A DNA stretch of 64,000 nucleotides. Source: Candidatus Hodarchaeota archaeon (lineage in GTDB: Archaea; Asgardarchaeota; Heimdallarchaeia; Hodarchaeales; Hodarchaeaceae). Of the stretch, positions 13,720 to 53,523 are shown one piece after another; the stretch's first letter is position 1, and each line of letters begins with the position of its first letter. Location: the NCBI GenBank assembly GCA_016839815.1, contig JAEOTM010000069.1, positions 1 to 64,000 of the forward strand, in the 5' to 3' direction. The position numbers and the translations under genes were made by a program. Under the pieces are notes generated by a model, which ran no database searches, was not told the origin of the DNA, and saw nothing but the letters and a program-made list of their open reading frames with translations.

Positions 13720-13917
13720 TATCGATCATTTTCCTCAACTATTATTCTTTTTTTTGTTTATATATTCATAATTGTCTACGTGAATTACGAGATATCGCTA
13801 TAAAAACCCGTAGAGGGGGAATATTAGATCTTATTATGCCTTTACTTACGCACTAAGTCTTGAAGGAACAACATTTTTACAGTTGCATCCGATAAAAAAA
13901 AGGAGAAGAAAAAAAGA

Positions 13918-25982: not shown

Positions 25983-26046
25983 TTTGGTAATTTATTTTGG
26001 AATATATTTTAAGATAGAGATTAAACAGACCCTTTATTGGAAGTGA

Positions 26047-27676: not shown

Positions 27677-27808
27677 TCATGTCACCGTTCAAAATATAGT
27701 GTAGTCTATTCCATTATAAGCATCTCGATTTTCGTTCAAATTTTGAGTATATATGCTTCATACAGAATCAGTACCAGATGACTCATTTTTCTCTGAGGCT
27801 AAATTCAA

Positions 27809-28264: not shown

Positions 28265-28277
28265 ACAATGATTCACT

Positions 28278-32151: not shown

Positions 32152-32153
32152 GC

Positions 32154-32720: not shown

Positions 32721-32725
32721 TCTAG

Positions 32726-35700: not shown

Positions 35701-37540
35701 ATAATCCTTCTGCATTGGACTGTACAGCACCCAAGTATTCTCCAGTAGTCGTATCTGTAAAATGGATTGCTTCATTCATTACAGCCTCTCCATCCTCATC
35801 TAATAAAAATCCCCAAAAACGGCCTATTTGTCCATAAACAAGCTCCGTTGCATTCTGATTGAGCGATTCTAAATGAGGAACGGAGAAAATTGTAAGTTTA
35901 AACCTCGTAACTCCAGTATCAAAGTTCATAGATCCGTGGAAGTACATAAGCAAGTCGATATCCCCAACGGGATGATTTTTTGAAACAGAGTAATCGAAGA
36001 CTAGACCTGCAATGCAATTTTGGGTACTAATAATGGTAGAATTAGTAAACATTAACGAAACTAATCCTTCATTAATCACGATACCCCCAGATAGTACTGT
36101 TACTTGGATCTGTGTATTTGTATTACGATGTACTCCTCCACTATCGTAAGTTAAGTCAAATTCGATTATTCCTTTAATTGGGATAGTAACAACACTCGTA
36201 ACCGCAAGAAGATTCGGATCTAGCTCAAAGAGGGAGAGAAGGAACTCATGATTTCCAATTGTAATATTCTCTGTTAGTGAATATGTAAAGGAAACATATC
36301 CATTAGTATTCGTAGACTTATTCATCAATGAAATATTTCCCTCCGTTAAATCTTTCAGTTCAACTTGACATAGAACAGGAACCGTGTGTATATCCTCTAA
36401 AGTAACATACGCCTCTAGATGGATTGTTTCATTTTGTTTGTATTCTGAAGAATTCAAATAGTATTGAATCCTTGCACGGTCTTGGACTGTTATTGATGAA
36501 GAGATATTAGCATATATCTCGTGTACGTCATTCTTAAGCTCTGTATAAATGACCAAATTTCCCAAAGGTATAGAACTGTTGGGAGAAAAAAAGAATTGAA
36601 AATTACGGATACTGAGAATTTTTTCAACTAGGACGATTGGTTGTAAATTAATCTCATAAAATATTGAAATAGTAAGTCCACTTGGATTGTCCCCAAGCAC
36701 TGTAGTATTAATTAATACTGATTCTTCTACTCGGTTTAGTGTTGTTGCATTAATTGTTTGATGAAGTGAGTACCCAGAGCTTAGAATGGTCACATTAACC
36801 TGATTTGACGAACAAGGTGTTGTTTGACTCTGAGAACTTCCTGTATAGTTAGCAAAAAATTGAACCAAACCAACGGATGAGAATAGTGGAATACGATAAT
36901 CAAACTCAATGGTTAAGATGGCGGGATCAGTGCCTGGATAATAGTTTTCTAATGGACCCATAGTCCAAATAACCGGAGAACCGATCAAACTAGAACTTGT
37001 AACTGTAATAAAGCCACCCTGAAACCACCATCTATAATGTATGAATAAATCAAGGGTAAAATGGATGGAAGCGTCCTTATATACGGTTGTAGAATTCACA
37101 GATAATTGTAAAGAAGTACTACGAGTACTCCCTGCAGTAATCTCCTCAAAGGTGATAGAACATGAGTCATTGGAGGGAAGATATTCCGCAAATCCTGAAT
37201 ATTCTGCTAGAAAAATATGGTCCCCTATCTGAAGAGGAGACGGAACAATCCACTCAATTTGTCCAGTACCATTGGAAATTATTGTGTCGATATATTCTCC
37301 AGTGAACAGATCAGTTAATCGAACTTGACCAAACGCAACTGGATCATAACCTGTATACGTCCAAATAGTGAACTGAATTATATCACCTAATCCTACAGTT
37401 CCTTTATCAGCTAAAATTGTTGTTGAGGTCTCTAGATTTGATGCACGAGCCTCATTGGATCCCAGATTAACTGTCAGAACTAATCCAAATATGAGAAAGA
37501 CAAAGGAGTACTGCTTAACATTTCGTTTTTTTATCCACAA
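32726..37540 (-). CDS. Large cell-surface protein with tandem Ig-like beta domains
   Basis: Signal peptide; repeated (A/C)xYxG and D-x-x-x-P/DxAGN Big-like repeats; T/Q/S-rich linker; C-terminal TM plus RRK. Confidence 0.8.
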   Translation of the reverse strand: MWIKKRNVKQYSFVFLIFGLVLTVNLGSNEARASNLETSTTILADKGTVGLGDIIQFTIWTYTGYDPVAFGQVRLTDLFTGEYIDTIISNGTGQIEWIVPSPLQIGDHIFLAEYSGFAEYLPSNDSCSITFEEITAGSTRSTSLQLSVNSTTVYKDASIHFTLDLFIHYRWWFQGGFITVTSSSLIGSPVIWTMGPLENYYPGTDPAILTIEFDYRIPLFSSVGLVQFFANYTGSSQSQTTPCSSNQVNVTILSSGYSLHQTINATTLNRVEESVLINTTVLGDNPSGLTISIFYEINLQPIVLVEKILSIRNFQFFFSPNSSIPLGNLVIYTELKNDVHEIYANISSSITVQDRARIQYYLNSSEYKQNETIHLEAYVTLEDIHTVPVLCQVELKDLTEGNISLMNKSTNTNGYVSFTYSLTENITIGNHEFLLSLFELDPNLLAVTSVVTIPIKGIIEFDLTYDSGGVHRNTNTQIQVTVLSGGIVINEGLVSLMFTNSTIISTQNCIAGLVFDYSVSKNHPVGDIDLLMYFHGSMNFDTGVTRFKLTIFSVPHLESLNQNATELVYGQIGRFWGFLLDEDGEAVMNEAIHFTDTTTGEYLGAVQSNAEGLFYFDFIVAESAQIGIHILQCSYQGNLGRYYLATPNPGIFTITIRPPLSLLIESAILANHWSVISIEGGLNEDIRLHWQRDGSTNWEFITVFTLNGSGIGNYNWSTPYYKGGLTLRASNSNQTNLKYDHATMYSVANMEVTGAEFGNTNDYYQFMVNCSESYQIWINDLLWKGGIQAGQHSYAYIFTSTGVKEILIVSNETYVYYHVYSHEITVIEDLQISISIPAEALVNLSINIDGTVLGEVSGPISGVDSILLVNGIETAIDSTNGAGIFHFLILFDQPGTYTIAVKVPLNSEDYYNASISGQYSIMIRSLPSALEILSPSNNSVYGSILEISFQGNADSYWYNIEPLDQTNVSWSETVFRELPEGFYTCNAYGENSYGEISFVSSFFSIDLTEPSLIIVSPRNESYNMNSVLLSFLTNEEEVFVFLDGVHTVGGSGTSLSNLSEGSHNLTIQVNDIAGNAIIKSCFFNVDTIIPYLNIVSPYNYSYTDAVPLSIDSDGETILYCISEIHSTNQTYTPHSISNLNLLFGTYSLNIYSYDAAGNVNTKKICFSVVEHVNLIINSQITKIDAAGNYYVNTEILSNPNFNTVGLYINGSNVGILEWDAFFQDYRLSFQFPSPGTWEVYLYANTTEGLYDTRIFFELWVAPLPTITSLSTSWESNRYEVRATIDSQSIDLDLVQVTLAGADYSLSNIYGNQWYTQVFCDPENYTVSLNMWYPWDNNPSLNKRYNISWYAPQIIIMDSSFERNGFSLEIRIEKANASIAEEIPTFIIQGATEEYSVNGTLIYESTMGSYQIWRFTSPWLIPDVWEFNLSVFDIYGHSSRYTAIFNSSDSPPLIGDSTLFLLENITSGVLYRLVIEVSDDYLVDKAVLYINGVEYPFTQINDSHVILEFFLTSGVYVLQISVIDDIGQQTVKYFPNIQVNGSEEQSFTTEQTTGTTQSPQSSQTETQQKIHSQIGLNDLIESGIGISLFAAFATLANVYFRRKEN

Positions 37541-37603
37541 TCTAGTAACTCTCGATGATTATCCCTTCCTGTGTTTTTATATTCAAAATGAATATTTATA
37601 AGT

Positions 37604-37647
37604 AGTATATAAAAAAACAATTTTTTCACGATTTCAGATATTTAAGG
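37604..37647. promoter_or_regulatory. Bidirectional promoter carrying shared island motifs
   Basis: AGTATATAAAAAAA (37604-37617), TTCACGATT (37625-37633) and ATTTCAGATATTTAAGG (37631-37647), about 40 nt before radA. Confidence 0.7.
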
Positions 37648-37686
37648 TTCAGCTGGATTCCAAGTTGAATACAACAAAATCGGTGT

Positions 37687-38709
37687 ATGTTTATGGCAAA
37701 AGCTGAATCAAAAAAAGAAAAAGCTGTTGTAGAGGACTTAGTTTCTGAAAAAAGTAAGAAAACTAAGGGAAAAAATCAAAAAGAAGCCAATTTTTTGGAT
37801 ACTATCTCTGGAATAGGCCCTACTACGCGAAAAAGACTAGAAGAGGCTGGATTTGGCAGTAAAGAGACCATCGCTCTAGCTACACGATCCCAGCTCTCAG
37901 ATATTTCTGGAATTGCAGAAAAAACCGCTACTGTCCTTATCCGAGAAGCACGGTCACAATTTGATCTCGGTTTAAAACCTGGATCGCATTACGCAAAACT
38001 CGGAGAAACTCGTCAGTATCTCACTACCTCATCTCAAGCATTTGATGACCTTCTTGGAGGAGGTTTCGAAACAGGATCGATAACAGAGATCGCAGGCGAA
38101 AATGGATGTGGAAAAACACAAATTTCTCATCAGTTAGCAGTTAACTGTGTAAAAAATGGCAAAGATGTTGTCTGGATTGATACTGAGGGAACATTTCGAT
38201 TTACTAGAATTTCTCAAATGGCTGAAGCCCTAAATCTTGACCCTGATGCAATATTGTCTCAAATTACGGTTGGTCGAGCATTCAATAGCGAACATCAGAT
38301 GGCACTCACAGAAGAAGCATTAACCATGGTTCAAAATGTAGGACTAATTATTGTGGATTCCCTAATGGCACACTTTCGTTCAGAGTTTGCAGGAAGAGCT
38401 ACCTTGGCCGAACGTCAACAGCTAATAGGAAAATATCTTGCATTTATAGCTAAGCAATCAGAAATATTGAATTGTGTTGCAGTAGTTACTAATCAAGTAT
38501 CAGCGAAACCTGATGCAATGTTCTTTGGAGATCCTAACAAACCAATTGGTGGTAATGTAGTAGGCCATACCGTGACAACTAGATTGATGATTCGCAAAGG
38601 AAAAGATATAAAACGAACAGCTACACTAACAAAAAATCCAGAGTTACCTGATGGAAAAATTGAATTTTCAATCGATACAGATGGGATCCGCGACTATTCA
38701 AGTAAATAG
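37687..38709 (+). CDS. radA: DNA repair and recombination protein RadA (possibly a paralog)
   Basis: N-terminal HhH (ISGIGP), GGGFETGSITE, Walker A GENGCGKT, WIDTEGTF, DSLMAHFRSEF.GR..LAERQQ, PIGGNVVGH. Confidence 0.9.
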   Translation: MFMAKAESKKEKAVVEDLVSEKSKKTKGKNQKEANFLDTISGIGPTTRKRLEEAGFGSKETIALATRSQLSDISGIAEKTATVLIREARSQFDLGLKPGSHYAKLGETRQYLTTSSQAFDDLLGGGFETGSITEIAGENGCGKTQISHQLAVNCVKNGKDVVWIDTEGTFRFTRISQMAEALNLDPDAILSQITVGRAFNSEHQMALTEEALTMVQNVGLIIVDSLMAHFRSEFAGRATLAERQQLIGKYLAFIAKQSEILNCVAVVTNQVSAKPDAMFFGDPNKPIGGNVVGHTVTTRLMIRKGKDIKRTATLTKNPELPDGKIEFSIDTDGIRDYSSK

Positions 38710-38748
38710 TCCTCCCTTTTTTCTGTATGGAGCTGAACTGGGACGCTT

Positions 38749-41337
38749 TTGACTCAAATATCTACGAAAATTCTTGAAGATAATACGACTCTTCTCCAGA
38801 TTGAACATCCATTGACTAGTAGGGAAGTTCTATATGCTTCCAAAGGAGTTTTGGTATCATATTTTGCTATCCAACCAGTTCATGATCTTGACAATGCTGC
38901 ACGGAATTTATTTCGTGTAACAAGTCAACCTGGAGTGCAGATCCTCCGACAAACATTCACAGCTCTCCCACGAAAATCGAAAGCTTATTCAAAACGAGAT
39001 GTCTCCTATACAGGCCTTTCTCTTATTGTACGTGTGTTCCATCATTTTCATATTCGTTCTGAATCCACATTACCCATAATATTACGACATATAAGAAAAG
39101 AGTTTCTCAAACAGCGTACCCTAACCTATACTATTCTCAAGGTAGCTGGATTCGAGGTTTCACTCGCTAAAGGAAAAAGAATTTTCGATTTGCATTTTCG
39201 GGGAAAAAAGATGAAAGAAGGAATCTCCATCTTCCCTTCTCAAACAGGATCAAAATCTAAATTACTTGATAGATTCTTTAATCTTGAACGAGTACCCTCA
39301 CGATTTATCCAGGACTTTGCAGTCCCTGATTTACCTGTAATTCATAGAATAGGTTATCGAGTTGATAATACAGCGATCCCTGTTGGCTTTGCAGACTTAT
39401 CTGCTGGATCAATCCTTGTATGCGGGTCAGATAATTCGGAACTCATCACGCTCTTTCAGAATCTGACACTCTCATTTAGTATTTCGAAAAATAACAGAGG
39501 TTTATTCATTATCGATACCCACAACGAGTTTAATGGGTTAATTCAACATTTTAGATCTTCAGAATCAAATAAACAGGGAATAAATCTTCAAGTGTTCCAA
39601 TTGGGTACAAATATGTTTATTAATCTCTGTGATGTCATTATTCCTCCCTCTCCTAGTGGTAAAAAGCAGAAATCCGAAGCTATTGAAGCATGGAAAGCTC
39701 ATCTTGTTAGTAATATTCTTTTATGCTCCTTATCAACTTCTGATTATCTTACATCGCGATTTGCAATACCTCTCGAAGCACAAATTCGAAATGCAGCCAC
39801 TGGAAGATCTATCTTCACCTTGGAAGATGTTACAACAACTATTGGTTCATCAACTTCTGGTGAGCTAGAGTCAGAGATCGGAGCAACCGATGGAATTTTT
39901 GCTGATATTATGGCCATCGAACATTTAAACGGAATTTTAGATCAATTTAAGGCATTTAAAGAGGTAAATTACCCTGCATTTACTGGTCATCTCAGTAATT
40001 CTCTTTTTCGTGATGATTCTATTACAATTTTTCAATTTGGTGCACAACCTCCAATGATAAAGCGAGCTACAGTTGCTTTCTTACTTCAATTCCTATCAAT
40101 GGTTGCTAGAAACGGTGTGGTAGTCTTTCCCCATGCAGATGAGATTCTGAGTAGAAAAACTCCTTATGGAAGGAATGAAACAGGTATTCCCACAGTATTG
40201 ATTGACTCGGTAAATAACCTCTCTCGAGAGAATGTTTTGGTTTTAGGTGGTCAAAGTGTTCAAGCCTTAGCTTCCAAAGTAAACTCCTTTGAGCAAATTA
40301 AAAATCAAATTTACTTACGTTTAGTGAATACACTGGATAGAGAAATCGTAATAACTCAACACCAATTAAAAGTAGGGAATGGTGTTCAATCCGCTACAAT
40401 TGAAAGACAAATATTGGGAATAATGGAAGGAGAAGGATTATTATTTCGAAGTGATACGTCTCAGAGTACCGCATATCATTTTAAGATGGATCGAGCTAAA
40501 GTACCAATAAATCTTAATCCAGTCAAAGTCACAGAGACAAAACTAAGGGGATCAAAGACTTTTGGTCTCATTCCACAGAAATTTGCACTTTTAATGAACC
40601 TACTAAAAACTCTCAAAGCACAGCCTCTTAATCGAGATATGTTACATGATGAACTTGAAATTGAGAGTAGAGACGAGACACTACTTGAACAGATGAAACA
40701 ACAGGATTTATACTCAGAAAGAGAAATTGATGCAGCGAGACAATGGGAAATAACTGTTAAAGGTTCAGAATTTTACGATAATCAAGTGGCATTAATGGAA
40801 AATTTACCAGCAGCTCCCACTACTGAGGAAGCAGAATCAATTGAACAGAAAATTGCCATTTCAGAAAGATTTTTTGATAGAACTGCTTCCAAGCAGAAAT
40901 TACAGGAAGAAAATGTCAAGATCAAAAATATGGTTGGAGAATTACTAAATTTTCTATATCAAATGCAAGGTTCTATCCCTTGGGTACGTTACGCTCAATA
41001 TACAGATTTAAAGGAAATAAATGGTATTGAAGGTCAGGATTTTCGTCAATTGTACAATCTCGCCTTAGAAATATGTTCAGATATTTGGCTAGATATAAAG
41101 AATGTTAGAAAGATCCATAAGAACGATAATGTACCATCTATTCCAATCATACCATCGATTCCTGGCAATAATTCCGGGAATCTTGATAAATTTTTACCTG
41201 ATGATAGATATGTCTCACTGCAGACTTTTAGTAAGGCACTAGGACTTAAGAAGTACCCTGATCATGGGATTCTCGATGTACATTTTAAATTTCTTAAACA
41301 GGGAAAACGCCTTGTTGAAGAATTAAACTTGGAGTGA
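38749..41337 (+). CDS. HerA/VirB4(CedB)-like P-loop protein with degenerate Walker motifs
   Basis: Family-like order: IPVGF, ILVCG (Walker A eroded), FIIDTHNEF, helical insert, VVVFPHADEIL (Walker B position), LVLGGQS, NQIYLRL, MEGEGLL; wHTH-like C-terminal region. Confidence 0.6.
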   Translation: MTQISTKILEDNTTLLQIEHPLTSREVLYASKGVLVSYFAIQPVHDLDNAARNLFRVTSQPGVQILRQTFTALPRKSKAYSKRDVSYTGLSLIVRVFHHFHIRSESTLPIILRHIRKEFLKQRTLTYTILKVAGFEVSLAKGKRIFDLHFRGKKMKEGISIFPSQTGSKSKLLDRFFNLERVPSRFIQDFAVPDLPVIHRIGYRVDNTAIPVGFADLSAGSILVCGSDNSELITLFQNLTLSFSISKNNRGLFIIDTHNEFNGLIQHFRSSESNKQGINLQVFQLGTNMFINLCDVIIPPSPSGKKQKSEAIEAWKAHLVSNILLCSLSTSDYLTSRFAIPLEAQIRNAATGRSIFTLEDVTTTIGSSTSGELESEIGATDGIFADIMAIEHLNGILDQFKAFKEVNYPAFTGHLSNSLFRDDSITIFQFGAQPPMIKRATVAFLLQFLSMVARNGVVVFPHADEILSRKTPYGRNETGIPTVLIDSVNNLSRENVLVLGGQSVQALASKVNSFEQIKNQIYLRLVNTLDREIVITQHQLKVGNGVQSATIERQILGIMEGEGLLFRSDTSQSTAYHFKMDRAKVPINLNPVKVTETKLRGSKTFGLIPQKFALLMNLLKTLKAQPLNRDMLHDELEIESRDETLLEQMKQQDLYSEREIDAARQWEITVKGSEFYDNQVALMENLPAAPTTEEAESIEQKIAISERFFDRTASKQKLQEENVKIKNMVGELLNFLYQMQGSIPWVRYAQYTDLKEINGIEGQDFRQLYNLALEICSDIWLDIKNVRKIHKNDNVPSIPIIPSIPGNNSGNLDKFLPDDRYVSLQTFSKALGLKKYPDHGILDVHFKFLKQGKRLVEELNLE

Positions 41338-41348
41338 GATGAAGCTCA

Positions 41349-43091
41349 ATGGAAATAAATCTCCCCTTAAAATTGGAATTATTTCCCCATGAAGAATTAC
41401 GAGCATATCAGGCGAGATTCCTACGCTTTGTAGAAAAACACACTAGATCTATTATTCATGCTCCAGTCGGATTCGGTAAAACGGTGATGGCCTTAACCAG
41501 TACATTACCATTAGTGAAGACTCAGCAGTATCAACTTTACATCTTTGTTAGAACAAAAGCGCAAATTTTCCGTGTTTTCTTTGAACAATTACGTAAAATT
41601 GCCAATACTGACAAATACGGTTATTTAACTGCTCTTCCATTAATCTTGAAGTCGGATTTATGCATTAGAGGTGATGTTCCATTTTTCTATCAGGGAATTT
41701 GTGGAAAAATTCGATGTCCACATTTTGAAAAGGCACGTTCCATCCCTGAAGAAGACTTTCCAACCATTGTTGAGCAGGTTCCCATCACAACTCATGAAGA
41801 GGAGATAACGATTGAGACTTTCAAGGACACACTACAGGAATTTGGTTGTCCCTATTATATCATCAAGCGTTGTATCCCTTATGCAAATATTATCGTTACC
41901 ACCCATACATATCTAAGAAGTAAAATTTTGCAAGGTATTCTCTCCACATTCCTACAAAAAAGCCTTTTTCCTAATAAAATCTGTGTTATTGATGAAGGAC
42001 ATAATTTTTCTGCAGAAATTGAGGCTGAAATCTCTTTAAATGACATCTATAAAGCCAGAGATATTATTCCTCTAAAAGTATTTGATTTACTACAGAATAT
42101 GATTCAAAATCGAACCGGAAGAATCGATCGTCCACCTAATTTAACCTCTGATGCAATAGATGCATTTCTTGATCATCAAATCAAATTATCTCCTTGGGAA
42201 CAGACGCACCTCCTTCTAGTTAAAGATTTTTTAAACAGTCGCGGAGAAATCTGGATTTCTGATTCAGAAAAATTGTTACAGCTTAATCCCTTCCCTCAAA
42301 CAACATTTAGATTTATCAACAATGAGTTCCAAAGTATCCTATTAATGTCTGGAACATTCCAACCTGTAGCATCTTATAAAACTCTTTATGGTATAAATTA
42401 TCCAGGTCTGTTCATTCCATCAGATTTCCAGTATAGTTTGAATGGCATTCTTTATCACAGGCAATTCAGCACAAAATATCGAGAAAGAACGTCCCAGACC
42501 TTTCAAGCAATGGCTTATGTAATAGAACGATTACATCAAAGAAACCCTTTTCATACGATCGTTTTTACTCCCTCACATGAATTAAAGCAGAAGATTCTGG
42601 CCCATATGGCTTTGTCAAATATTTATATTGAACAACCTGATGAAAGACCTTTTTTTATTGAAGACCTTAATAAGAAGTCGCATGAGGTTATTTTTGGGGT
42701 GCTAGGGGGAAAATTATCAGAAGGAATTGAAATCCTCGATCCGCGAACTAATCGTAGCCTATTAACTTTAATTATTATTGCTGGAGTGCCATATACACGT
42801 CCAGATATAACAAATCGATTAATAAAAAGTCTTTATACACGAAAATGGGGTAAGAGAATGGCTGATCACCTTTCTCTATTACCTGTCACTCGATCAATTA
42901 CGCAAGCAATAGGAAGAGGAATTCGATCAGAATCAGACTTCGCAGCCAGTTTAATCTTGGATTACCGAGCTGCTACCTTACGCACAATGTTACCTGGAGC
43001 AATCATTTTTCGTGATCTTAATGCTTGTTATCGAACATTTGACTCTTTTTTTACAAAAATGAGAAGGGAATTTCTAACGAAATATCCGTAA
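41349..43091 (+). CDS. XPD/Rad3/DinG-family Fe-S helicase
   Basis: Q-motif LRAYQ, APVGFGKT, Fe-S cysteines (DLC, GIC, RCPHF, GCPYY), IDEGHN, MSGT, GKLSEGI, QAIGRGIRSESD. Confidence 0.92.
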   Translation: MEINLPLKLELFPHEELRAYQARFLRFVEKHTRSIIHAPVGFGKTVMALTSTLPLVKTQQYQLYIFVRTKAQIFRVFFEQLRKIANTDKYGYLTALPLILKSDLCIRGDVPFFYQGICGKIRCPHFEKARSIPEEDFPTIVEQVPITTHEEEITIETFKDTLQEFGCPYYIIKRCIPYANIIVTTHTYLRSKILQGILSTFLQKSLFPNKICVIDEGHNFSAEIEAEISLNDIYKARDIIPLKVFDLLQNMIQNRTGRIDRPPNLTSDAIDAFLDHQIKLSPWEQTHLLLVKDFLNSRGEIWISDSEKLLQLNPFPQTTFRFINNEFQSILLMSGTFQPVASYKTLYGINYPGLFIPSDFQYSLNGILYHRQFSTKYRERTSQTFQAMAYVIERLHQRNPFHTIVFTPSHELKQKILAHMALSNIYIEQPDERPFFIEDLNKKSHEVIFGVLGGKLSEGIEILDPRTNRSLLTLIIIAGVPYTRPDITNRLIKSLYTRKWGKRMADHLSLLPVTRSITQAIGRGIRSESDFAASLILDYRAATLRTMLPGAIIFRDLNACYRTFDSFFTKMRREFLTKYP

Positions 43092-43104
43092 GAATTGAAT
43101 TCAG

Positions 43105-44523
43105 TTACTTATTTCCCTCACCTAAATTCTTAAGATGGAAAAACCGTGCTTCTTCACTGGTTTGTTTTGTAAGCAAGAAGATTCTTGGAATTGGCACCAA
43201 TAAATGATTTAACCTCTCGAAAATATCTGCATTTACATCATATGCAACAATGATGTTTGCTAGATTCGCAATTTGATCATTAACTGAATTTGAGATACAT
43301 ACTTGAATCTTTTTACTACTAAAGCCAAAGAGATTCTTTTCTAGTTGTAAACCGCAGAGGGAGGAAATCAGTTGAGTTATATGAGTTACCGATATTCCTT
43401 TTTCCTTCAATCTTCTTTCAAGAAACTTTGCGTTGTACCTATTATTCGTGACAAGAGAAACGTTTGTCTTATGTGTATCAATAAGTTTAAGAATCTGGTT
43501 AAATTTAGGATGCTCCAATTTGGGGAATAGTAAAACATACTCACGAAGTTTCTTAATGAGAGGATTCCCTAAAAACTCAACTAATGCTTTTTTACCGATA
43601 ATATTATCTGAATCGTTTAAACGACTCTGTAATTTATTAAGATAGGATGTGAAAGCTGGAAATCCCTGAGAAATTACTATTCGCTGCATGTTCATGATTC
43701 GCTGTAAATTTGCTGTTTTTACGAGATGTTTTCCAGGCTTATCATTTAATAAACTCTCATGGATAGCTGCTATTTGCTGAGGTGTGCTTTTTACTGAGAC
43801 ACTAAAACCTAGGTGTTCAAGTTCCATCAATCGATTCTTCTTCATTTGATCAAGAATGTCTAGTACAAAAAAATATTCCTTGGGTAGAGGAAGGGAATAG
43901 TGTTGAATATTTGATCTTTCACTCCGAATATCTCCATCAATCTTGACAATTTCCATAAGCTCTAAGTTTAAACACGCTTGTTCAAGTTTGATATTATTTT
44001 TCTCTCTTGAAAGACCTACTAGCTTTTTTGGAGTCAAGTTGCTAATAATGTATCTCAAGGATGATGAGGAAACCCCCATTTCGGCATAATCGATAATAAC
44101 CAATGAAAAATGATCTTTTTCAAAGAAAGATTGTTTATAATCATTCTTTACCGTTTTAGGAGTAGATATTATAATACTATATCGATTGTAATCCATTTTT
44201 CGTGCTTGGGGAAGGATTTGTCCATTGTGAATTGTCACAACCTGATTTATATATTCTTGAATTCCTGTCTTGAATATTTCTTGGATCTGTCGTTTTGTAA
44301 GAATTAAAACTCTTGGAATTGCTTCCAGTCCTTTCTCTAACGAAATATTCAAACTTATAAGCAAAGATAATATCCGAAATAGTTTTTCTTCTATCCGATA
44401 TTGTAATAAACTATTCTGTTTCTGAATTTGTGCTAAGAGGACTTGTTCTTCGAGTGTGGGAGAGAACTTCAACTTATGAGAAGGATTTCCATTGGTTTCT
44501 GTCAAACTCACACTGAGGTCCAT
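43105..44523 (-). CDS. Hef/FANCM(Mph1)-like helicase-fold protein, catalytically degenerate
   Basis: IIISTPKTVKND, FSLVIIDYAE (DEAH eroded), VGLS, EHPKF, IIVAYD, TSEEARF; no GKT Walker A and no ERCC4 domain. Confidence 0.7.
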   Translation of the reverse strand: MDLSVSLTETNGNPSHKLKFSPTLEEQVLLAQIQKQNSLLQYRIEEKLFRILSLLISLNISLEKGLEAIPRVLILTKRQIQEIFKTGIQEYINQVVTIHNGQILPQARKMDYNRYSIIISTPKTVKNDYKQSFFEKDHFSLVIIDYAEMGVSSSSLRYIISNLTPKKLVGLSREKNNIKLEQACLNLELMEIVKIDGDIRSERSNIQHYSLPLPKEYFFVLDILDQMKKNRLMELEHLGFSVSVKSTPQQIAAIHESLLNDKPGKHLVKTANLQRIMNMQRIVISQGFPAFTSYLNKLQSRLNDSDNIIGKKALVEFLGNPLIKKLREYVLLFPKLEHPKFNQILKLIDTHKTNVSLVTNNRYNAKFLERRLKEKGISVTHITQLISSLCGLQLEKNLFGFSSKKIQVCISNSVNDQIANLANIIVAYDVNADIFERLNHLLVPIPRIFLLTKQTSEEARFFHLKNLGEGNK

Positions 44524-44556
44524 CCTAACTCCAAAGGAACATGATTTCTCCTTTAA

Positions 44557-44784
44557 TTACTTCAATCCTTCTATTGGTTCCACCCAGTTTCGGTGTGCGC
44601 TACAAGAAATTACTTTTGAATTTTTTACCACTAATACTGAGGGCATGCGTCTATTCAACAGTAAAGAACATATACCTCCGATCCCCCAATTTGCAAATTC
44701 ACATATTTGACATAATGGACTATTTACAAAAATTTCATCAAGAAAAGGTAGACTAGTTGGTCGGAATATTGGTTGACTTGTCAC
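44557..44784 (-). CDS. Small Cys/His metal-binding protein
   Basis: CQIC...C...CSAH; AGGTGA RBS upstream of the GTG; co-oriented 33 nt upstream of the Hef-like gene. Confidence 0.55.
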   Translation of the reverse strand: MTSQPIFRPTSLPFLDEIFVNSPLCQICEFANWGIGGICSLLLNRRMPSVLVVKNSKVISCSAHRNWVEPIEGLK

Positions 44785-44841
44785 TTGCGATTCACCTAGA
44801 TATCTACTCTGTTACTATCCATCTAGTATAGGTGAATGAGA

Positions 44842-44886
44842 CTTAAATATCTAAAAACCCCTCCTCCGAATTTTTCAAGTATAAAA
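44842..44886. promoter_or_regulatory. Divergent promoters with island motif variants
   Basis: Minus strand TTTTTAGATATTTAAG (44842-44857); plus strand TTTTCAAGTATAAAA (44872-44886). Confidence 0.55.
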
Positions 44887-44905
44887 ACTAAAAAACTAAT
44901 CCATA

Positions 44906-45418
44906 GTGAAGAAGATGTTATCAGAAAAACAACTAACTGAACGTTTAGAAATCTATCTGAGAGATCATTTACAATTCCAAACATATCTTGAACTACAGAT
45001 TAATAGTAATGAAAATTTTAAGATCTCCGAAATAATAAACCAAGAGTCCTTTCGAATTGACTTAGCAGGCATCAGTCAAATAGATGGGTCGATACACTTT
45101 GTAGAAGCGGAAACCCAGATACATATCAACCATCCCACAATATTCCGTCATTTTTGTGACTATTGCTATTTATTATGTCCTGACGAACAATTTACCCTGC
45201 TTAATTCTACGACTGTAGATGAACAACTCTCTTGGGCTCGAGAAGAGGGAATTGGAATTATATCCATCTCGAAAGAAGGACGAGTTAGAAATCGTATCCA
45301 TGCAGTCCAACAGCCGTTAGACTCTGAAATTCGGAAAGTAGTTATACAGACGATGAATAATCGGTATAATATTCCATTTTCTACCATCCCATTATGGGAC
45401 CGTTCCAGGGAGTCATAA
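44906..45418 (+). CDS. PD-(D/E)XK endonuclease-like protein (MmcB-like)
   Basis: RIDLAGI..IHFVEAET..FCDYCYLLCP..GIGII matches the MmcB-type layout. Confidence 0.6.
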   Translation: MKKMLSEKQLTERLEIYLRDHLQFQTYLELQINSNENFKISEIINQESFRIDLAGISQIDGSIHFVEAETQIHINHPTIFRHFCDYCYLLCPDEQFTLLNSTTVDEQLSWAREEGIGIISISKEGRVRNRIHAVQQPLDSEIRKVVIQTMNNRYNIPFSTIPLWDRSRES

Positions 45419-45461
45419 TTTTAAACTGAAGTGATTAATTATTACTCGAAAGAAAAAAAAA

Positions 45462-45968
45462 TTGTTAGTGTGTTCACCAACAGAGAGAAAAAAAGCAGAA
45501 CTTTTCAACCAAATAGATACACTTTTCCAAGAGAACCGATTCGAGCAAGCAATAACCAATTTGCATTATTTATTACGAACTGATCCATCTCGAGAGCAAG
45601 ATATCCGTTTCAAGTTAGCACAAATCTTTTTCAAAAGAAATGAAATAGATCAGACCTTAAATATACTATCTCCTCTGCTACCAAGTTCGAAACGTAATAT
45701 CACAGAGCTAGCAATCCAATCCTTTATTTCTCTAGATGAAAAGGAAAATTCCCTCCGAATACTTGTAAATTCACCATTACATGACTACGAAAAAAGAAAG
45801 CTGTATCAAAGGTACTTTTCAGACTCCCCAGAGGGACAAGACAATTTTTCGATTTGGCCCCAGTTGGACATTTATTGTCCTGAGTGTGGAGATTATCTGT
45901 TCTTTCACCAAGAGAAAATAGTTTGTTTAAAATGTCATCAAAAAGAAATTTCTAAGTTTCTTGCTTAG
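45462..45968 (+). CDS. TPR + C-terminal zinc-ribbon protein
   Basis: TPR-like helices, then CPECG...CLKC. Confidence 0.65.
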   Translation: MLVCSPTERKKAELFNQIDTLFQENRFEQAITNLHYLLRTDPSREQDIRFKLAQIFFKRNEIDQTLNILSPLLPSSKRNITELAIQSFISLDEKENSLRILVNSPLHDYEKRKLYQRYFSDSPEGQDNFSIWPQLDIYCPECGDYLFFHQEKIVCLKCHQKEISKFLA

Positions 45969-45993
45969 TTCTTCAAAGTTTGAACTCTTTAGC

Positions 45994-47121
45994 CTAGTCG
46001 GATCCTATAGACTCTTTTATTTTCCCTTTTGCTAGCTTGATTTGCTCTGTCACCTTCGTGAGAATTGGCTTTTCTTCTTCGCTAAGCGTTCCCTCAATAA
46101 TTTCAAATTCACCTTCATCACTTTCAAGTAGTATATCACTTTCCTGTGTTACACCTTTTTCGGATTCAACTTGATCTCCTCTCTCTTCAATCAAGGATTC
46201 TGATAGTTTTCTTTCACTTATCTTGTCTAACCCAATTATTTCCTCACCTTTTTCCTTGATCTTATCAGCAGTTAATAATTTAGGGGATTTATTTTCGTTA
46301 GAATCTGTGGTTTTAATCTGGATTTTCCTTTTTGAATCTAAAGATGTATGAGACCTTGTGAAACTTCCCATTAAATCAGACATAATTTCCTCTTCGGTTT
46401 CAGATGCGAAATCTTCATCTGTTTGATTCCCTGATTCATCAGGAATGGTTGGAGATTCTCCTCCAAGGTTTTTAGAAAGGACAATAGGGTTATGTACTCC
46501 GTTATCAGGATCAATTGGGTTCTTTAAATTATGTGAATTAACAGAGTTTGAAACCAGATGGTTCTGATCACCAAAGATATTGGGATTTTTTATAATACTG
46601 ATTACTAATCCAGGAATAATTTTCTGAATAGCCACTTGGAAATCAACACTTCGTTCTTTAATGTCATGAATGAACCTTTCCATCTCTTTCTCAGAACTTA
46701 GCAATAAAGGATAATTAAACTCAGGAAATTCAATACTCAATGAGAAGATCGTCTTGGAAGAATCCTCAATAACACGAAAATCAAACTCCTGTAAGTTTTT
46801 GAGAACTGAGAGACGATAATCTTCAGGTTTTGCTTCAATCCTATAATCAAGGAAAACTGTTGTTATATTGTCATATGCAGAGAAAATTATCATAGCTTCT
46901 GGAAGGAGATCTGAATAGAAGATTTCATGACTTGATTTAATGTTTGTAAAGTGAAACATGTCTATTTGAAGCTTCCTATCAGCATTATCCAGCATTAAAC
47001 CAACGAAGTACCCCACTCCTCCAAAAAGGAATATAATTATTGAATTAGAATTAATTACTAAGAACAGAATGTTACCAAATAGGAATCCAATAATTGTTGT
47101 TAAAATGCTCTTACTTATCAT
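45994..47121 (-). CDS. Two-TM membrane protein with alpha/beta domain and acidic disordered tail
   Basis: Two N-terminal TM helices; E/D/S/K-rich C-terminal third. Confidence 0.65.
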   Translation of the reverse strand: MISKSILTTIIGFLFGNILFLVINSNSIIIFLFGGVGYFVGLMLDNADRKLQIDMFHFTNIKSSHEIFYSDLLPEAMIIFSAYDNITTVFLDYRIEAKPEDYRLSVLKNLQEFDFRVIEDSSKTIFSLSIEFPEFNYPLLLSSEKEMERFIHDIKERSVDFQVAIQKIIPGLVISIIKNPNIFGDQNHLVSNSVNSHNLKNPIDPDNGVHNPIVLSKNLGGESPTIPDESGNQTDEDFASETEEEIMSDLMGSFTRSHTSLDSKRKIQIKTTDSNENKSPKLLTADKIKEKGEEIIGLDKISERKLSESLIEERGDQVESEKGVTQESDILLESDEGEFEIIEGTLSEEEKPILTKVTEQIKLAKGKIKESIGSD

Positions 47122-47193
47122 TATTCCTCATTTCCATTCTCCTGCCGAAAATCTGAGATAATCTAGACTAATCAATAATGGATTCGTAACCTG

Positions 47194-47210
47194 CCTTAAA
47201 TATCTGAAAT
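47194..47210 (-). promoter_or_regulatory. Island promoter motif, exact copy of the radA 17-mer
   Basis: ccttaaatatctgaaat is the reverse complement of ATTTCAGATATTTAAGG, and points at the 47121 start. Confidence 0.75.
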
Positions 47211-47234
47211 TCAATAATTCTCTAAATAATTAAT

Positions 47235-49991
47235 TCAAGCAATAAATATCCTACAGTCATTATAATCCGTACCGAGGGGGATTTCCTTATTTTGTAAGAT
47301 AAAAGCAAGAATTTGCTGCGCTCCCGCTTTATCCAACAATGTGTTATTCTTACTGCAGCGGGGTAAAAAGCAACATTTTGGACAGCCATCTTGGCAGTCA
47401 CATTCTAGAATTTCACTGGCTCGTAAAAATAGATCAGATAAGTGACTCATTAGCATCTCACAAATTCCATAACCCGTGGATTGATCAAATAAAAGGATGT
47501 ATCCCTGAGGTAGTAATGTTAATCCACCAATTTCGTGAATCTGTCCTCCAATAAACGGTAAACTTGCATGTATAAGGACATGAACGAGAGTATGTAAAGA
47601 ATTATTAAACCGATTTTGATCTAATTGGACATTCAAGGAAGATCTGGGGATTTGAAACAATAAACCTCTGGATTGAGACGAATAATATTGTGGTTCCCGT
47701 AATTTCTTGGTTTCTGTTCCAGATGGTGTTTGAAGTGTATAACCAACAACTGATTGTAGAATTTTCGCTGTAACGAGACCAAATTCCAAACCATAAACTG
47801 AAACTGTGGACTTATGAATTTCCAGAATTTGGGGTTTCATTCTAGTAAGGGGGAATGTCTGACCCCAAACACTTTTGGGTTTTATCAGTTCCGCCCACCC
47901 CCGGAATCCATTAAACCGATAACTAATTACCCGGTATTTTGCACCTCCAGCTAAATAATAAGCCCCTGGATATAACTCATACATTGCAAGTGGCATACTT
48001 CGTTTGCCTATTTGTTTTCCACCACGAATCCTGATTATAATCTCATGATTCGTTCCTCTAATTGAATACTTTCGAACTTTTTCAATCCCTTGTTCTGTAG
48101 GAACGAAAATATCATTCTCAAATCTCTGAAGATAGTTCTTTTTGTCTAATTCCTTGATTGCTGATACATACTCTGGAAATTCATTTATCCCTAATGGATG
48201 GTCGAGAGCTGCGGTAAGAAGTTGATGATCGACAACATTTGGATTGGTTGGGTCGAAAAATATATCCTCTACTTCTTGGTAATAACGTTCGGGGTTATTA
48301 TAATAATAATGACAAATCGGATCATCTGCATTAAGATGAATGATTGCTACAGCATCTTGTCCTTTTCTTCCAGCTCTTCCAATCCTTTGGATAGCACGAT
48401 TCGCAGAAATTGGAGGGGTAACTACGATTTCTAAAGCTCCAATATCGATTCCCAATTCCAAGGTTGGAGTAGCTATTAAAAGATCGATATCTCCTTCTCT
48501 GAATTGTGTCTCCACTTCTTCACGAACTTTTTTATCTAATCCCGCTCTATGTATCCCAATCTTCTCCGAAGTCCCCCGTAAACGTTGAAAAAGATATTCA
48601 GCACTACGATGAGAGTCTTGAAACGCCAAGATTTTTCCATATGGTTTAATTGAATTAAGTAAACTTGTAATACCATCAAAGGTTGACATGCCATCAAAAG
48701 GAGCGATCATTAAAAAATGCAATCGTCCTCTTCGGCCATGTTGACATTCAACTACTGTAATTGAGCGATTCAACAGGCGACTGGTGAAATTCTGTGGATT
48801 AGCAACTGTTGCAGAAGAAGCGATAAATTGGATCCTATTATCAACAATACGCTCAAGGCGTCGAAGAATAAAATACATATTACTCCCAAATGTTCCAGAA
48901 AAGGTATGAACTTCATCCAATATGACGATTTTCAAATTAGATACTAAATTTTGAAAAAATCCTGAGTTTTTCCCAATTCCAAGATGATAATGAAGAATAT
49001 CTGGGTTTGTAATCAGAATTTCTGGAGGATTAGCAAAGATCTTTTTTCGTCGATATTGAGAGGTATCTCCATCAAAGACTTCTACTGATAATTTTAAGAG
49101 CGAAGCAAGTTCGGTTATTTTTCTTAACTGATCCTTAGCTAAAGCCTTCTGGGGATAAATAATTAATAATTGTACTCCATATCCCACGAAATCTTTAATC
49201 TTTATCAGCGCAGGAAGAAGAAATCCTTCTGTTTTCCCATTACCTGTCGGGGCAACAATGCATACATCTTGATTCGCTAGAATTTTTTTGTAGGCTTCTT
49301 CCTGAAACTTATAAAGCCGTTTAATCCCCTTTGAATTCAGATACTTTATAATCTCATAGTTATTAATGAATTGTATTTTCTTTCCATATTCACCACTTTG
49401 TTTATCAAAAAAACGATAGTCTACTATCTGATGCTGACCGAAATGAACTAGCTGTTTAATGACCACTGGAAGAGCTTCTTCCTCAATCTTAAAATGTGCA
49501 TAAAATTCATTTAAGGAGAAAATACTCTTTGGTGCATTGCTTTGTATCTGCTTCGCTTTCTGTAAACCCAACGGATGATCACTTGGTAGAGTTTTAAGTT
49601 TTCCTGTGCTTGCTAAGCGTGTTTTTACCTTAGGATTAAGTGAAACACCTCCTCCTTTCAATGAATAGAATTTCTGTAAACAGAATTCCGCTTTTTCATT
49701 TTCTTTTAATTTGAAGTAAAGAGAAGATAATGCCTTCCAGGTATCACGATGCTGACTATCTTGTTGTAAAATCCTTCCAAATACAAGTTTAGCCTCATTA
49801 TAACATTTAATCTTGATAAAACGACTAGCAATTGTAGACAACAATGAAATTGAAGGTTTGGGAGAAGAAGAGTCAATGATATTCTTAAATGAAACTACCA
49901 TAGCATCAAGATCTCTTGTCAAAGCATAATCTTCAAGAGCAGACTCATACTGTTTCCAGAGGAGCTTTTCCTTTTCGTGAGCTAGTGTCAT
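47235..49991 (-). CDS. MrfA/Hrq1-like DEAH helicase with DUF1998-type Zn domain and N-terminal TPR
   Basis: LYKFQ, APTGNGKT, TNPDILH, LDEVH, SATVAN, HRAGL, TPTLELGIDIG, QRIGRAGR, CDCQDGCPKC. Confidence 0.92.
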   Translation of the reverse strand: MTLAHEKEKLLWKQYESALEDYALTRDLDAMVVSFKNIIDSSSPKPSISLLSTIASRFIKIKCYNEAKLVFGRILQQDSQHRDTWKALSSLYFKLKENEKAEFCLQKFYSLKGGGVSLNPKVKTRLASTGKLKTLPSDHPLGLQKAKQIQSNAPKSIFSLNEFYAHFKIEEEALPVVIKQLVHFGQHQIVDYRFFDKQSGEYGKKIQFINNYEIIKYLNSKGIKRLYKFQEEAYKKILANQDVCIVAPTGNGKTEGFLLPALIKIKDFVGYGVQLLIIYPQKALAKDQLRKITELASLLKLSVEVFDGDTSQYRRKKIFANPPEILITNPDILHYHLGIGKNSGFFQNLVSNLKIVILDEVHTFSGTFGSNMYFILRRLERIVDNRIQFIASSATVANPQNFTSRLLNRSITVVECQHGRRGRLHFLMIAPFDGMSTFDGITSLLNSIKPYGKILAFQDSHRSAEYLFQRLRGTSEKIGIHRAGLDKKVREEVETQFREGDIDLLIATPTLELGIDIGALEIVVTPPISANRAIQRIGRAGRKGQDAVAIIHLNADDPICHYYYNNPERYYQEVEDIFFDPTNPNVVDHQLLTAALDHPLGINEFPEYVSAIKELDKKNYLQRFENDIFVPTEQGIEKVRKYSIRGTNHEIIIRIRGGKQIGKRSMPLAMYELYPGAYYLAGGAKYRVISYRFNGFRGWAELIKPKSVWGQTFPLTRMKPQILEIHKSTVSVYGLEFGLVTAKILQSVVGYTLQTPSGTETKKLREPQYYSSQSRGLLFQIPRSSLNVQLDQNRFNNSLHTLVHVLIHASLPFIGGQIHEIGGLTLLPQGYILLFDQSTGYGICEMLMSHLSDLFLRASEILECDCQDGCPKCCFLPRCSKNNTLLDKAGAQQILAFILQNKEIPLGTDYNDCRIFIA

Positions 49992-50081
49992 AACTACTCA
50001 TTAATTGATAATGAATTTTCCTTAAGAATGCAAAATCCTTTTTTGTGTTAATTACTTTAAATTCCTAGATTCCTTAAAAAG

Positions 50082-50137
50082 AGTATATAAAAAAATTCAC
50101 GATTAGGCAATATTAGACCCATTTTCGAATATTTAAG
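50082..50137. promoter_or_regulatory. Bidirectional promoter carrying shared island motifs
   Basis: AGTATATAAAAAAA (50082-50095), TTCACGATT (50096-50104), TTTTCGAATATTTAAG (50122-50137). Confidence 0.65.
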
Positions 50138-50170
50138 CCATTCTCGGTATCAGTAGTAGAGGTTTGGAAA

Positions 50171-51607
50171 ATGGTTACTGAGAATATAACGACCCACCTA
50201 CTTTCGGGGGAAAGACAATCAGAGATGTTTCAAAATCCGCAATCATTAGTTAATGCTACTAATGAGGAATTATTCAGTCTCGAAGCGGATTTTGTACATC
50301 GAGTACAATTAGCAGGAGCTCGAAAACGGTTCGAGTACTTTATTCCAAGAATTAAAGCTTTAAAAAAGCTGGCAGACGAACAGAATATCTCAGAGATTAC
50401 GAGTCTTAATGATCTAGCTCCTATTCTCTTTCAACACACCGTCTACAAAAGCTATCCATTAGCCTTCATTGAGAAGAAGAAGTTTGATAAGCTTACAGCT
50501 TGGTTAGATAAGCTTACTACACACGATTTGTCGACAATTGTGACGAATGAGTGTAATTCTATCGACTCTTGGTTAGAAGCAATCGAAAAGCAGTCCAATA
50601 TTCGAATTGTCCACAGTACGGGTACGAGCGGGAAGTTAAGTTTTCTTCCAAGAAGCGAGAGTGAAATGGACAATTTTAAGCAAGCGTTCTATTTGTTTAT
50701 TGAGGTCCTCACAGGTGTGAATCCCCATACTACACATATGCCTGTTTTCTTCCCAAGTTTTGCTGATGGGAGACAATTAGCCCAAAGGGTACTAAGTCGA
50801 TTTGGCCCAATGTTAGCAGGATCTGAAGGGGAATATCATACTGCAATTCCTGGTTATCTTTCCGCGGACTTCATGTCTCTTGCAGGTAGATTACAAGCAG
50901 CAAAAGCTAAAGGAGAATTAGGAAAACTCCAAATGCTTAAAGCATTGAGCTATAACAAAGGTGAGCTCATCCGATTAAAACGGAATCGTCCGAAATATAT
51001 GGCAGCTTTCTTTGATAATATGATTAGTAATTATCGTGGTCGTCAAGTTTTCATGCTTGGAACGCTCACATCAATGATTGAAGCCGCATTAGAAGGAGAA
51101 AAACAAGGATTGAGTCATGTTTTCGCCCCTAATTCCGCAATAGTAACTGGAGGGGGACTTAAAGGACAAACTGTTCCTGATGACTGGTATGAAAGAATCT
51201 GTACTTTCTATGGTGTCAAAAGTATCAGAGATGGCTATGGAATGACGGAAACAACTGGTTACATGCCTTCTTGTGAACAGAATCACTACCATATCTATCC
51301 ACATTTCATTCCGTTTGTTTTCGACTTGGTTGATGGTCAAGTATTGCCCCGAAAAGGGATTCAAACTGGACGGTTTGGTTTCTATGACCTGCTCACTGAA
51401 AGTTATTGGGGTGGGTTCCTAACAGGTGATGAAGTAACAATTCACTGGGATGAGCAATGCACATGTGGACGCACTGGTCCTTGGCTTGAAAAGAGTATCC
51501 ATCGTATTAGTGAGAAAAATGATGGGGACGACAAAATTAGCTGTGCAGGGAGTCAAGAAGCATATGACTCGTTTATCGACTATTTATTGGATATAGAGGA
51601 AGAGTAA
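50171..51607 (+). CDS. LuxE-like acyl-protein synthetase (ANL adenylating family)
   Basis: STGTSGKLSF, TGGGLKG, YGMTE, GRFGFYD, GGFLTGD, CTCGR, C-terminal KISCAG. Confidence 0.75.
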   Translation: MVTENITTHLLSGERQSEMFQNPQSLVNATNEELFSLEADFVHRVQLAGARKRFEYFIPRIKALKKLADEQNISEITSLNDLAPILFQHTVYKSYPLAFIEKKKFDKLTAWLDKLTTHDLSTIVTNECNSIDSWLEAIEKQSNIRIVHSTGTSGKLSFLPRSESEMDNFKQAFYLFIEVLTGVNPHTTHMPVFFPSFADGRQLAQRVLSRFGPMLAGSEGEYHTAIPGYLSADFMSLAGRLQAAKAKGELGKLQMLKALSYNKGELIRLKRNRPKYMAAFFDNMISNYRGRQVFMLGTLTSMIEAALEGEKQGLSHVFAPNSAIVTGGGLKGQTVPDDWYERICTFYGVKSIRDGYGMTETTGYMPSCEQNHYHIYPHFIPFVFDLVDGQVLPRKGIQTGRFGFYDLLTESYWGGFLTGDEVTIHWDEQCTCGRTGPWLEKSIHRISEKNDGDDKISCAGSQEAYDSFIDYLLDIEEE

Positions 51608-51637
51608 CTTCTTCCATTTCTTTTTGAGGACACTAAC

Positions 51638-53086: not shown

Positions 53087-53105
53087 TAAAGTTGGAGGGA
53101 TTCAT

Positions 53106-53420
53106 GTGGATGCCTGTCAACATCAAGTTATAGATCAATCTATAGAAACAACTCTATTCCTATGTGTAGTTTATAAAGACTATTTTCAATCTTGCCCGTC
53201 TAAATGTCCTTATTACAGATCAGGTTCTCCTCTAACGTTTGCTTATCTTTATAGTAAAAATTTTGATTTTGAGTGTACATACTTTCAGAGTTTAGTGCAG
53301 TGTACAGCACACGATAGCCAGTCATTCATTTGTGAACTAACGAAGAAGCCACCTGATTGCCCTAATTGCCCATTAAAACTAGTTTCTAATTCAGGTGTCA
53401 ATTCGGGAGTTAGGTCCTAA
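53106..53420 (+). CDS. Cys-rich small protein (paralog of 27380..27676)
   Basis: GGAGG RBS upstream; same Cys spacing as 27380..27676. Confidence 0.7.
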   Translation: MDACQHQVIDQSIETTLFLCVVYKDYFQSCPSKCPYYRSGSPLTFAYLYSKNFDFECTYFQSLVQCTAHDSQSFICELTKKPPDCPNCPLKLVSNSGVNSGVRS

Positions 53421-53473: not shown

Positions 53474-53497
53474 TTATCAGACCTTTATTTCTGATAA
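53474..53497. promoter_or_regulatory. Palindromic operator-like site TTATCAGA-N8-TCTGATAA
   Basis: Perfect 8-bp arms abutting a TATA-like element about 25 nt before the 53524 start. Confidence 0.5.
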
Positions 53498-53523
53498 ATA
53501 TACGATATCGTTGGGATCAGTTA

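Follow-up and report, generated by a model that had tools for sequence, protein, structure and literature searches.

A T-rich element joined to the TATA box very probably marks a regulon of recombination and envelope genes in a Hodarchaeales genus

Why should one promoter motif recur in front of a radA paralogue, a Hef-like gene, a membrane-protein gene and a luxE-like gene that lie near each other in an archaeal genome? The question is raised by a stretch of 64,000 nucleotides from a Candidatus Hodarchaeota archaeon (GenBank assembly GCA_016839815.1, contig JAEOTM010000069.1, positions 1 to 64,000; hereafter the window), which is contig C9 of genome G000 in our numbering, a 4.2-Mb assembly. 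The Hodarchaeales are Asgard archaea and are among the closest known relatives of eukaryotes; the RadA paralogue next to the motif has its nearest relatives in genomes labelled Ca. Hodarchaeota/Hodarchaeum. A preliminary description had read the motif as a TATA box whose usual purine-rich B-recognition element (BRE) is replaced by TTTC, and had taken it to mark a DNA-damage regulon controlled by a dedicated activator or an alternative TFB. We found that the motif very probably marks a real regulon, which would comprise about 15-20 transcription units scattered over the genome.

The pattern WTTTYRRATATTTAAG was found four times in the window, where 0.01 copies are expected by chance and none of 100 shuffles reached four. 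The whole assembly contains five copies, the single extra one on contig C160. The four copies in the window (37631 +, 44842 -, 47195 -, 50122 +) are intergenic and face a start codon 40-80 nt away, which confirmed their placement and orientation as first described. Orthologous radA genes from 17 genomes of the genus, with 70-93% identity at the protein level, have upstream a T-rich heptamer joined to a variable TATA box, and a first matrix was trained solely on the radA promoters of 13 distant congeners. The refined logo, built from 69 sites in distant genomes, gave the consensus TTTYKAR directly abutting TATWWAAR, with 15 bits over positions -9 to +8 and weaker signals for AW at +19/+20 and a purine at +29/+30, counted from the first T of TATA. 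The ATATTTAAG end is one among several TATA variants, and the string given in the preliminary description was too narrow, matching just 14 sites in a set of 100 orthologous promoter sites, the set to which all counts out of 100 below refer.

The logo has the geometry of an archaeal core promoter, with a purine start some 30 nt after the TATA box and AW near -10. These spacings agree with the known distances from TATA to the melted region and start site in archaea (PMC5817253, PMC7289017), suggesting that the element is itself a core promoter with the heptamer in the BRE slot, at about -37 to -33 relative to the putative start site. In the radA operon the TATA box lies at 37639 and the start site would be at about 37668. 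The register between heptamer and TATA is fixed (offset 0 in 63 of 70 sites) and no palindromic covariation was seen in the heptamer, which fits an oriented monomer bound in the BRE slot. A canonical BRE (A at -3, purine at -6) was present in 0/100 orthologous sites. The replacement of the BRE by a T-rich sequence therefore stood, whereas the contrast with the usual BRE was only weakly shown, because no clear generic BRE-TATA emerged from k-mer counts and expectation maximization on 2067 upstream regions of this organism; its generic BRE is faint (36 sense, 12 antisense, 27.5 shuffled). The element thus appears to be a regulon-specific core promoter in which a T-rich sequence takes the place of the purine-rich BRE.

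The motif heads the transcription units of a syntenic cluster. This cluster occupies 27809-53420 of the window (27 kb) and has eight transcription units, and the matrix trained on radA found all the other unit heads in genome after genome. When each gene family was omitted from matrix training before being scored, 89 of 103 unit heads reached at least 10 bits, compared with 2 of 127 genes inside operons and none of 45 independent promoters in the neighbourhood, and conservation before orthologues thus holds. Among 2777 candidate promoters genome-wide, 18 (under 1%) reached 13 bits, compared with 3.6 in shuffled controls, and most of the top ones belonged to genes of the cluster or their paralogues. 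The TATA half is ordinary (546/2777 promoters), but both halves occur in register in only 12/2777. The motif was not found before the genes for EF-2, S15, TBP, the four TFBs, the four Orc1s and the core RadAs or before the ribosomal-protein operon, and it is thus not equally common before housekeeping genes.

The strongest evidence for a regulon is a natural experiment provided by relocated genes. The HerA-like gene has its own motif in 10/10 genomes in which it has left the radA operon and in 0/7 in which it is still operonic. The XPD gene acquires its own motif in the one genome in which an insertion has come between it and radA, and the relocated 289-residue membrane-protein gene, Cys-rich open reading frame (ORF), luxE and luxC likewise carry the motif. 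The genomes compared are kin and some gene moves are shared by descent, so that these counts are not independent; nevertheless, that relocated genes keep the motif indicates that selection clearly holds them under this promoter. As the BRE-replaced TATA is not generic and is conserved before orthologues, it very likely belongs to a regulon with a dedicated factor.

The copy heading the radA operon (37630..37647, +; 16.8 bits; 17/17 orthologues) precedes genes for a RadA paralogue (37693..38709, +) with an intact Walker A motif and about 43% identity to the two core RadAs, which falls into a Hodarchaeales-specific clade in a tree built by a quick method only, for an 862-residue HerA/VirB4-fold protein (38749..41337, +) with a C-terminal winged helix and a Walker A that is degenerate in all aligned rows, and for an XPD/DinG-type helicase (41349..43091, +). 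In genome G007 (contig C27; L092/L160) the radA paralogue is broken into two reading frames, and upstream of it the motif occurs twice in tandem. A copy absent from the preliminary description (37573..37590, -; 18.5 bits; 14/14 orthologues) heads an operon at 29940..37540 (-) encoding a giant 1604-residue Ig-like surface protein, a YdjM-like membrane hydrolase, a 354-residue membrane-anchored protein and two RecA-fold ORFs, namely a 150-residue ORF and a 233-residue RecA/KaiC-fold ATPase. Another copy new to this analysis (27739..27756, +; 18.3 bits; 9/10 orthologues) heads the operon at 27809..29925 (+) for a 151-residue protein without assignment, a 261-residue protein with a Cas4-like PD-(D/E)XK nuclease fold and the 289-residue four-helix membrane protein with HxxxH, whose M50-like label is an alignment pattern only, with no Pfam or PDB match.

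Two divergent copies lie side by side further downstream. One (44841..44858, -; 13.1 bits; 13/16 orthologues) precedes a conserved 75-residue Cys-rich ORF and a gene for a Hef-like helicase-fold protein with no Walker A match (43105..44784, -). The other (44871..44888, +; 15.4 bits; 10/13 orthologues) had been listed as a weaker variant at 44872 and is well supported; it precedes a conserved 167-residue ORF with a PD-(D/E)XK-like pattern but no family match and a TPR/zinc-ribbon ORF (44915..45968, +). The MmcB-like label for the 167-residue ORF is likewise an alignment pattern, with no Pfam or PDB match. The gene for a 375-residue protein with two N-terminal membrane helices (45994..47121, -) is headed by a copy at 47194..47211 (-; 15.5 bits; 11/12 orthologues). 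A weaker variant that had gone unlisted (50020..50037, -; 11.8 bits; 5/11 orthologues at 10 bits), with a 37-nt spacing identical in 8 orthologues, heads the gene for an MrfA/Hrq1-type DEAH helicase with an MZB domain (47235..49991, -). The copy at 50121..50138 (+; 20.6 bits; 10/10 orthologues) heads genes for a luxE-like acyl-protein synthetase, a luxC-like acyl-CoA reductase and a 104-residue Cys-rich ORF (50171..53420, +). In G012 (contig C9; L415) a second luxE/luxC set is split by insertions, with the motif before each piece. Half of the regulon members are envelope, lipid-acyl or small proteins.

Outside the cluster, a further copy not described before (13756..13773, -; 15.9 bits) precedes an unannotated 48-residue ORF (13592-13738, -), and both ORF and site are kept in G020. 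Two other copies listed as weak fared less well: the one before a HEAT-repeat gene (53486..53503, +) is doubtful, with 7.1 bits and 0/10 orthologues reaching 10 bits, and a copy at 25995 is unsupported (-1.6 bits; 0/9 orthologues). A tandem AsnC/Lrp-type gene at 54288-55322 (-) ends the cluster in eight genomes and is missing from it in others; it has no motif and is a candidate regulator.

Putative members were also found elsewhere in the genome. A paralogous cluster on contig C128 (HerA-like, YdjM-like, AAA ATPase) has the same divergent motif pair in five genomes. This second cluster is patchy (L057, L185-L189, L417, L425), is duplicated in G012 and also contains genes for a protein like the 289-residue one and for an unassigned protein of 740+ residues. 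A helicase-phosphoesterase gene on contig C40 has the motif in 6/7 homologues with upstream DNA, RPA has a conserved variant 125-190 nt upstream (at least 8 bits in 14/20 genomes), and a conserved 43-residue ORF on contig C162 carries the motif. The fifth exact copy, on C160 (L058:1986-2194), lies before a 53-residue ORF divergent from a small ArsR/MarR-type helix-turn-helix gene. A 297-residue longin-like gene (L375:13904-14797, L376, L195, L202) has the motif in G016 and G001 and is found near relocated HerA-like genes in other genomes. Single-genome matches before ligA, birA, a PAS protein gene and an EamA transporter gene may be due to chance. Across the genus there were 163 matches versus 61 in controls. 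Other Heimdallarchaeia had 119 versus 78, and 20 that were inspected were mostly coding or headed no recurrent gene, so the motif there looks like chance; two genomes of the sister family had no clear motif site.

What would such a regulon do, and what would read its promoters? The best reading, which we hold to be probable though by a modest degree, is a programme of cell contact and recombination under a dedicated promoter class. TBP would bind the TATA box, and the TTTYKAR sequence directly upstream would replace the BRE as the binding site of a dedicated factor. The simplest such factor would be an alternative TFB of a Heimdallarchaeia clade with an altered recognition helix, the other option being an activator in the same slot. 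When this factor is active, the scattered units would fire together. Their products would include the extra RadA with its RecA-fold partners, helicases, nuclease folds, RPA and the HerA/VirB4-fold protein, as well as the giant adhesin-like protein, membrane proteins and LuxE/LuxC. The programme would thereby serve cell contact, DNA uptake or exchange and recombination, by a logic like that of Sulfolobus Ups/Ced or bacterial competence. We infer its function, trigger and factor from the genes and promoters described above.

The dedicated activator or alternative TFB of the preliminary description is thus very likely in general form, and its identity is a matter of weighing candidates. G000 encodes four full-length TFBs, three of which share a recognition helix unlike the canonical one, making an alternative TFB the simplest candidate; we give it close to an even chance. 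Another activator, such as a tandem-Lrp protein, is nearly as likely, while an Orc1 paralogue is an improbable reader. Several observations count against the proposed programme. With the Walker A of the HerA/VirB4-fold protein not intact, and with neither a DNA channel nor a pilin identified, DNA transfer is only a candidate function. The motif stands before none of the four TFB and four Orc1 promoters, nor before the cluster-end AsnC gene and TBP, and autoregulation of a TFB or Orc1 thus gives no pointer to the factor. The changed-helix TFB clade is also present in other Heimdallarchaeia, where the motif resembles chance. Moreover, several congeners (L107-L114; G009, G011, G003, G015), two of which are 96% complete, yielded no canonical TFB, so a changed-helix TFB may be the housekeeping one; a TBP-linked, changed-helix TFB is the sole paralogue found in every genome checked. 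A real loss of the canonical TFB in these congeners would be surprising. The TFB of the type on contig C127 (L239-L257) has a strongly conserved upstream element of its own, with a TCTAGA core unrelated to the motif.

Other explanations of the same promoters have to be weighed. The preliminary description had equated the motif with the ANTTTC element of Sulfolobales, which is placed upstream of the BRE, at -44 to -39 (PMC5817253), and is bound by Orc1-2, including at its own promoter (PMC6061795, PMC9738581). The likeness is that a TTTC core occurs in 49/100 orthologous sites, that the motif is asymmetric like this DNA-damage element (DDRE), that four Orc1 paralogues are present, and that the members include RadA, XPD, MrfA, Hef-like and RPA genes; the Sulfolobus regulon is also rich in DNA exchange and spares most repair genes (PMC6061795, PMC6101591). 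However, ANTTTC itself was found in just 23/100 sites, with no preference for A and with T as frequent as C, and the longer S. islandicus consensus in 0/100. The Hodarchaeales element occupies the BRE slot, no Orc1 or TFB gene carries it, and the genome has no truncated TFB3, all four TFBs being full length. Together, the rarity of ANTTTC, the BRE-slot position and the lack of the motif at Orc1 and TFB genes argue against membership of the DDRE family; the equation does not hold, and an ANTTTC-type element bound by an Orc1-2-like activator is improbable. Both nurA-herA pairs, uvrB, XPF, the Y-family polymerase gene, the Hef homologue that is intact and three genes of the core RadA family were also found without the motif. 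The regulon of the preliminary description is thus upheld, but its damage label is unproven, core repair genes, Orc1 and TFB paralogues being without the motif. DNA damage acting through a factor other than an Orc1-2-like one is a possible trigger, if on balance an unlikely one, because the Sulfolobus UV response likewise induces few repair genes (PMC6101591). Many congeners have a core radA and an Orc1/Cdc6 paralogue in divergent orientation (G000:C185:26040-29203; L214-L229), each with its own conserved footprint; a second motif common to core radA and Orc1 was considered, and these footprints define no regulon. A mobile element that was domesticated, or a defence island, with promoters read by a factor encoded on the element, could explain a compact cluster of divergent, degenerate enzymes, the patchy paralogous cluster and the C40 helicase-phosphoesterase, which is patchy and lies beside transposase-like genes but keeps the motif. 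Against this, ten cluster proteins had no PHROG match, PADLOC gave generic helicase matches only, the GC content of the cluster equals that of the genome, its chromosomal neighbourhood is fixed, it is present across the genus, and the core gene RPA has a motif variant, so we consider this origin quite improbable. Least probable is an optimal generic promoter of the lineage. The commonness of the TATA half, the RPA variant and the weakly visible generic BRE would fit it, but the rarity of both halves in register, the attachment of the motif to particular relocated genes and its lack before the translation, TBP, TFB, Orc1 and core radA genes named above do not.

The rival that deserves most attention keeps the same regulon and makes it respond to a cell-to-cell signal. 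No copy in the genome scores higher than the one at C196:63149 (21.6 bits), which lies before a 45-codon ORF that has a ribosome-binding site. The 45-residue precursor has a basic N-region, a hydrophobic core, a G-x-A cleavage site and a 12-residue proline-rich tail, DPLEGPYPPIGY, and this peptide would be exported via its signal peptide. An exported peptide of this kind could be sensed by an adjacent tandem-Lrp regulator. That regulator would switch on the motif promoters directly or via a TFB, and since the peptide gene has such a promoter itself, a positive feedback would arise like that of ComRS in streptococcal competence. The tail is identical in G018 (6 synonymous and 0 replacement changes), with 14 replacements in the signal part. 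The motif is kept before the G018 precursor and also stands before precursors whose tails differ, in G020, in G016 and, as a weak copy, in G001; in G016 and G001 the peptide gene is on the same contig as the cluster. Its divergent neighbour encodes a 485-residue protein with tandem winged helix-turn-helix/Lrp modules in the predicted structure; the model matched NirDL with Z 13.6 and a root-mean-square deviation of 4.9 over 268 aligned residues, the N-terminal 140 residues being barely covered. This regulator family is distributed like the motif, having been found in all 22 genomes of the genus and in none of 39 others, and in G009 a regulator-peptide pair adjoins the relocated HerA-like gene. 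However, the motif-bearing type was found in just 5/22 genus genomes and not in near-complete G009, which has the regulon, and about 15 related precursors beside other paralogues of the regulator are without the motif. A dimeric Lrp protein would be expected on a dyad upstream of the BRE rather than on an asymmetric, TATA-joined site, and the peptide may be the trigger or simply one more product of the regulon, such as an antimicrobial or a surface peptide. We therefore regard this signalling explanation as possible but rather unlikely.

Peptide-regulator pairs are thus a genus-wide system, about 18 such pairs or peptide genes having been found in the genus, and one peptide type is wired into the regulon (5/22 genomes). 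A predicted complex of the 485-residue regulator with the precursor end scored 0.02 and has no bearing either way. A peptide search of metagenome contigs gave no match, and a protein search just two known homologues. In a second pair type, likewise genus-wide (L392:6790-6960, G000:C162; L377-L389, L354, L442, L451), a tandem-Lrp gene is divergent from a signal-peptide ORF; the proline-rich tails of 9-15 residues differ between genomes, there is no motif, and small ORFs follow, one with a weak longin-domain match. A further copy of the C196 tail (G000:C87:3770-3940; L366) differs at two residues, and stops break up its signal part, which suggests a precursor in decay. In G001 (L393, C14), G004 and G020 the regulator paralogues form tandem arrays with as many as four or five members.

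How does the regulon compare with known systems? Competence regulons of Firmicutes join a peptide gene with a recombinase, a single-stranded-DNA-binding protein and a translocase-fold protein, and the Hodarchaeales regulon is alike in this. Firmicutes peptide systems such as ComRS (PMC4686606) and the Paenibacillus pairs (PMC7425212) also place a short exported pro-peptide gene beside its regulator, with several pairs per genome and variable tails, but RRNPP/Rgg regulators have a TPR fold, whereas the Hodarchaeales regulator is modelled as tandem winged helix-turn-helix/Lrp and the promoter is of the archaeal TBP/TFB type. In the Sulfolobales DDRE/Orc1-2/TFB3 system (ups, ced; PMC5817253, PMC6061795, PMC6101591), too, a TATA box whose BRE is poor has a short, T-rich and asymmetric element nearby, and cell-surface, DNA-translocase-fold and recombination genes are mixed in a regulon that spares most core repair genes. 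The two differ in that the Hodarchaeales element abuts TATA, that no ups or ced homologue was identified in the Hodarchaeales genome, and that a peptide precursor and luxE/luxC are members. In Ced import, CedB is an active HerA/VirB4 ATPase, whereas the Hodarchaeales fold has a degenerate Walker A. With regard to the CedA channel and the pilin-like CedA1/A2, membrane proteins are present in the cluster, and they had no matches in family searches. Alternative-TFB regulons, as in haloarchaea (TFB/TBP, PMC7289017) and S. acidocaldarius (TFB2, 10.64898/2026.09.06.749720), share the presence of several TFB paralogues and a promoter class defined beside TATA. The BRE of the TFB2 regulon is near-normal with changed spacing, whereas the Hodarchaeales sequence is pyrimidine-rich. 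Our literature search found no cis-regulatory element or regulon described for Hodarchaeales, and neither the motif nor the peptide-regulator pair described in Asgard archaea.

The 15-bit element provides a membership test for genes that could not otherwise be annotated, and through it a RadA specific to the lineage is tied to envelope genes and to a peptide that is a candidate signal. A still more specific picture, which we put forward tentatively and think slightly less probable than the signalling explanation in general, is that Ca. Hodarchaeum runs a competence- or mating-like programme controlled by a peptide pheromone through a tandem-Lrp sensor, the TATA-fused element and an alternative TFB, switching on an adhesin, a protein of DNA-translocase fold and a recombination set with its own RadA. 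The archaeal order closest to eukaryotes would then possess a social circuit for DNA exchange. With purified proteins, the regulon makes two questions testable: could TFB paralogues in Asgard archaea work as alternative sigma factors do, and do the archaea most closely related to eukaryotes run a regulated programme of cell contact and recombination?

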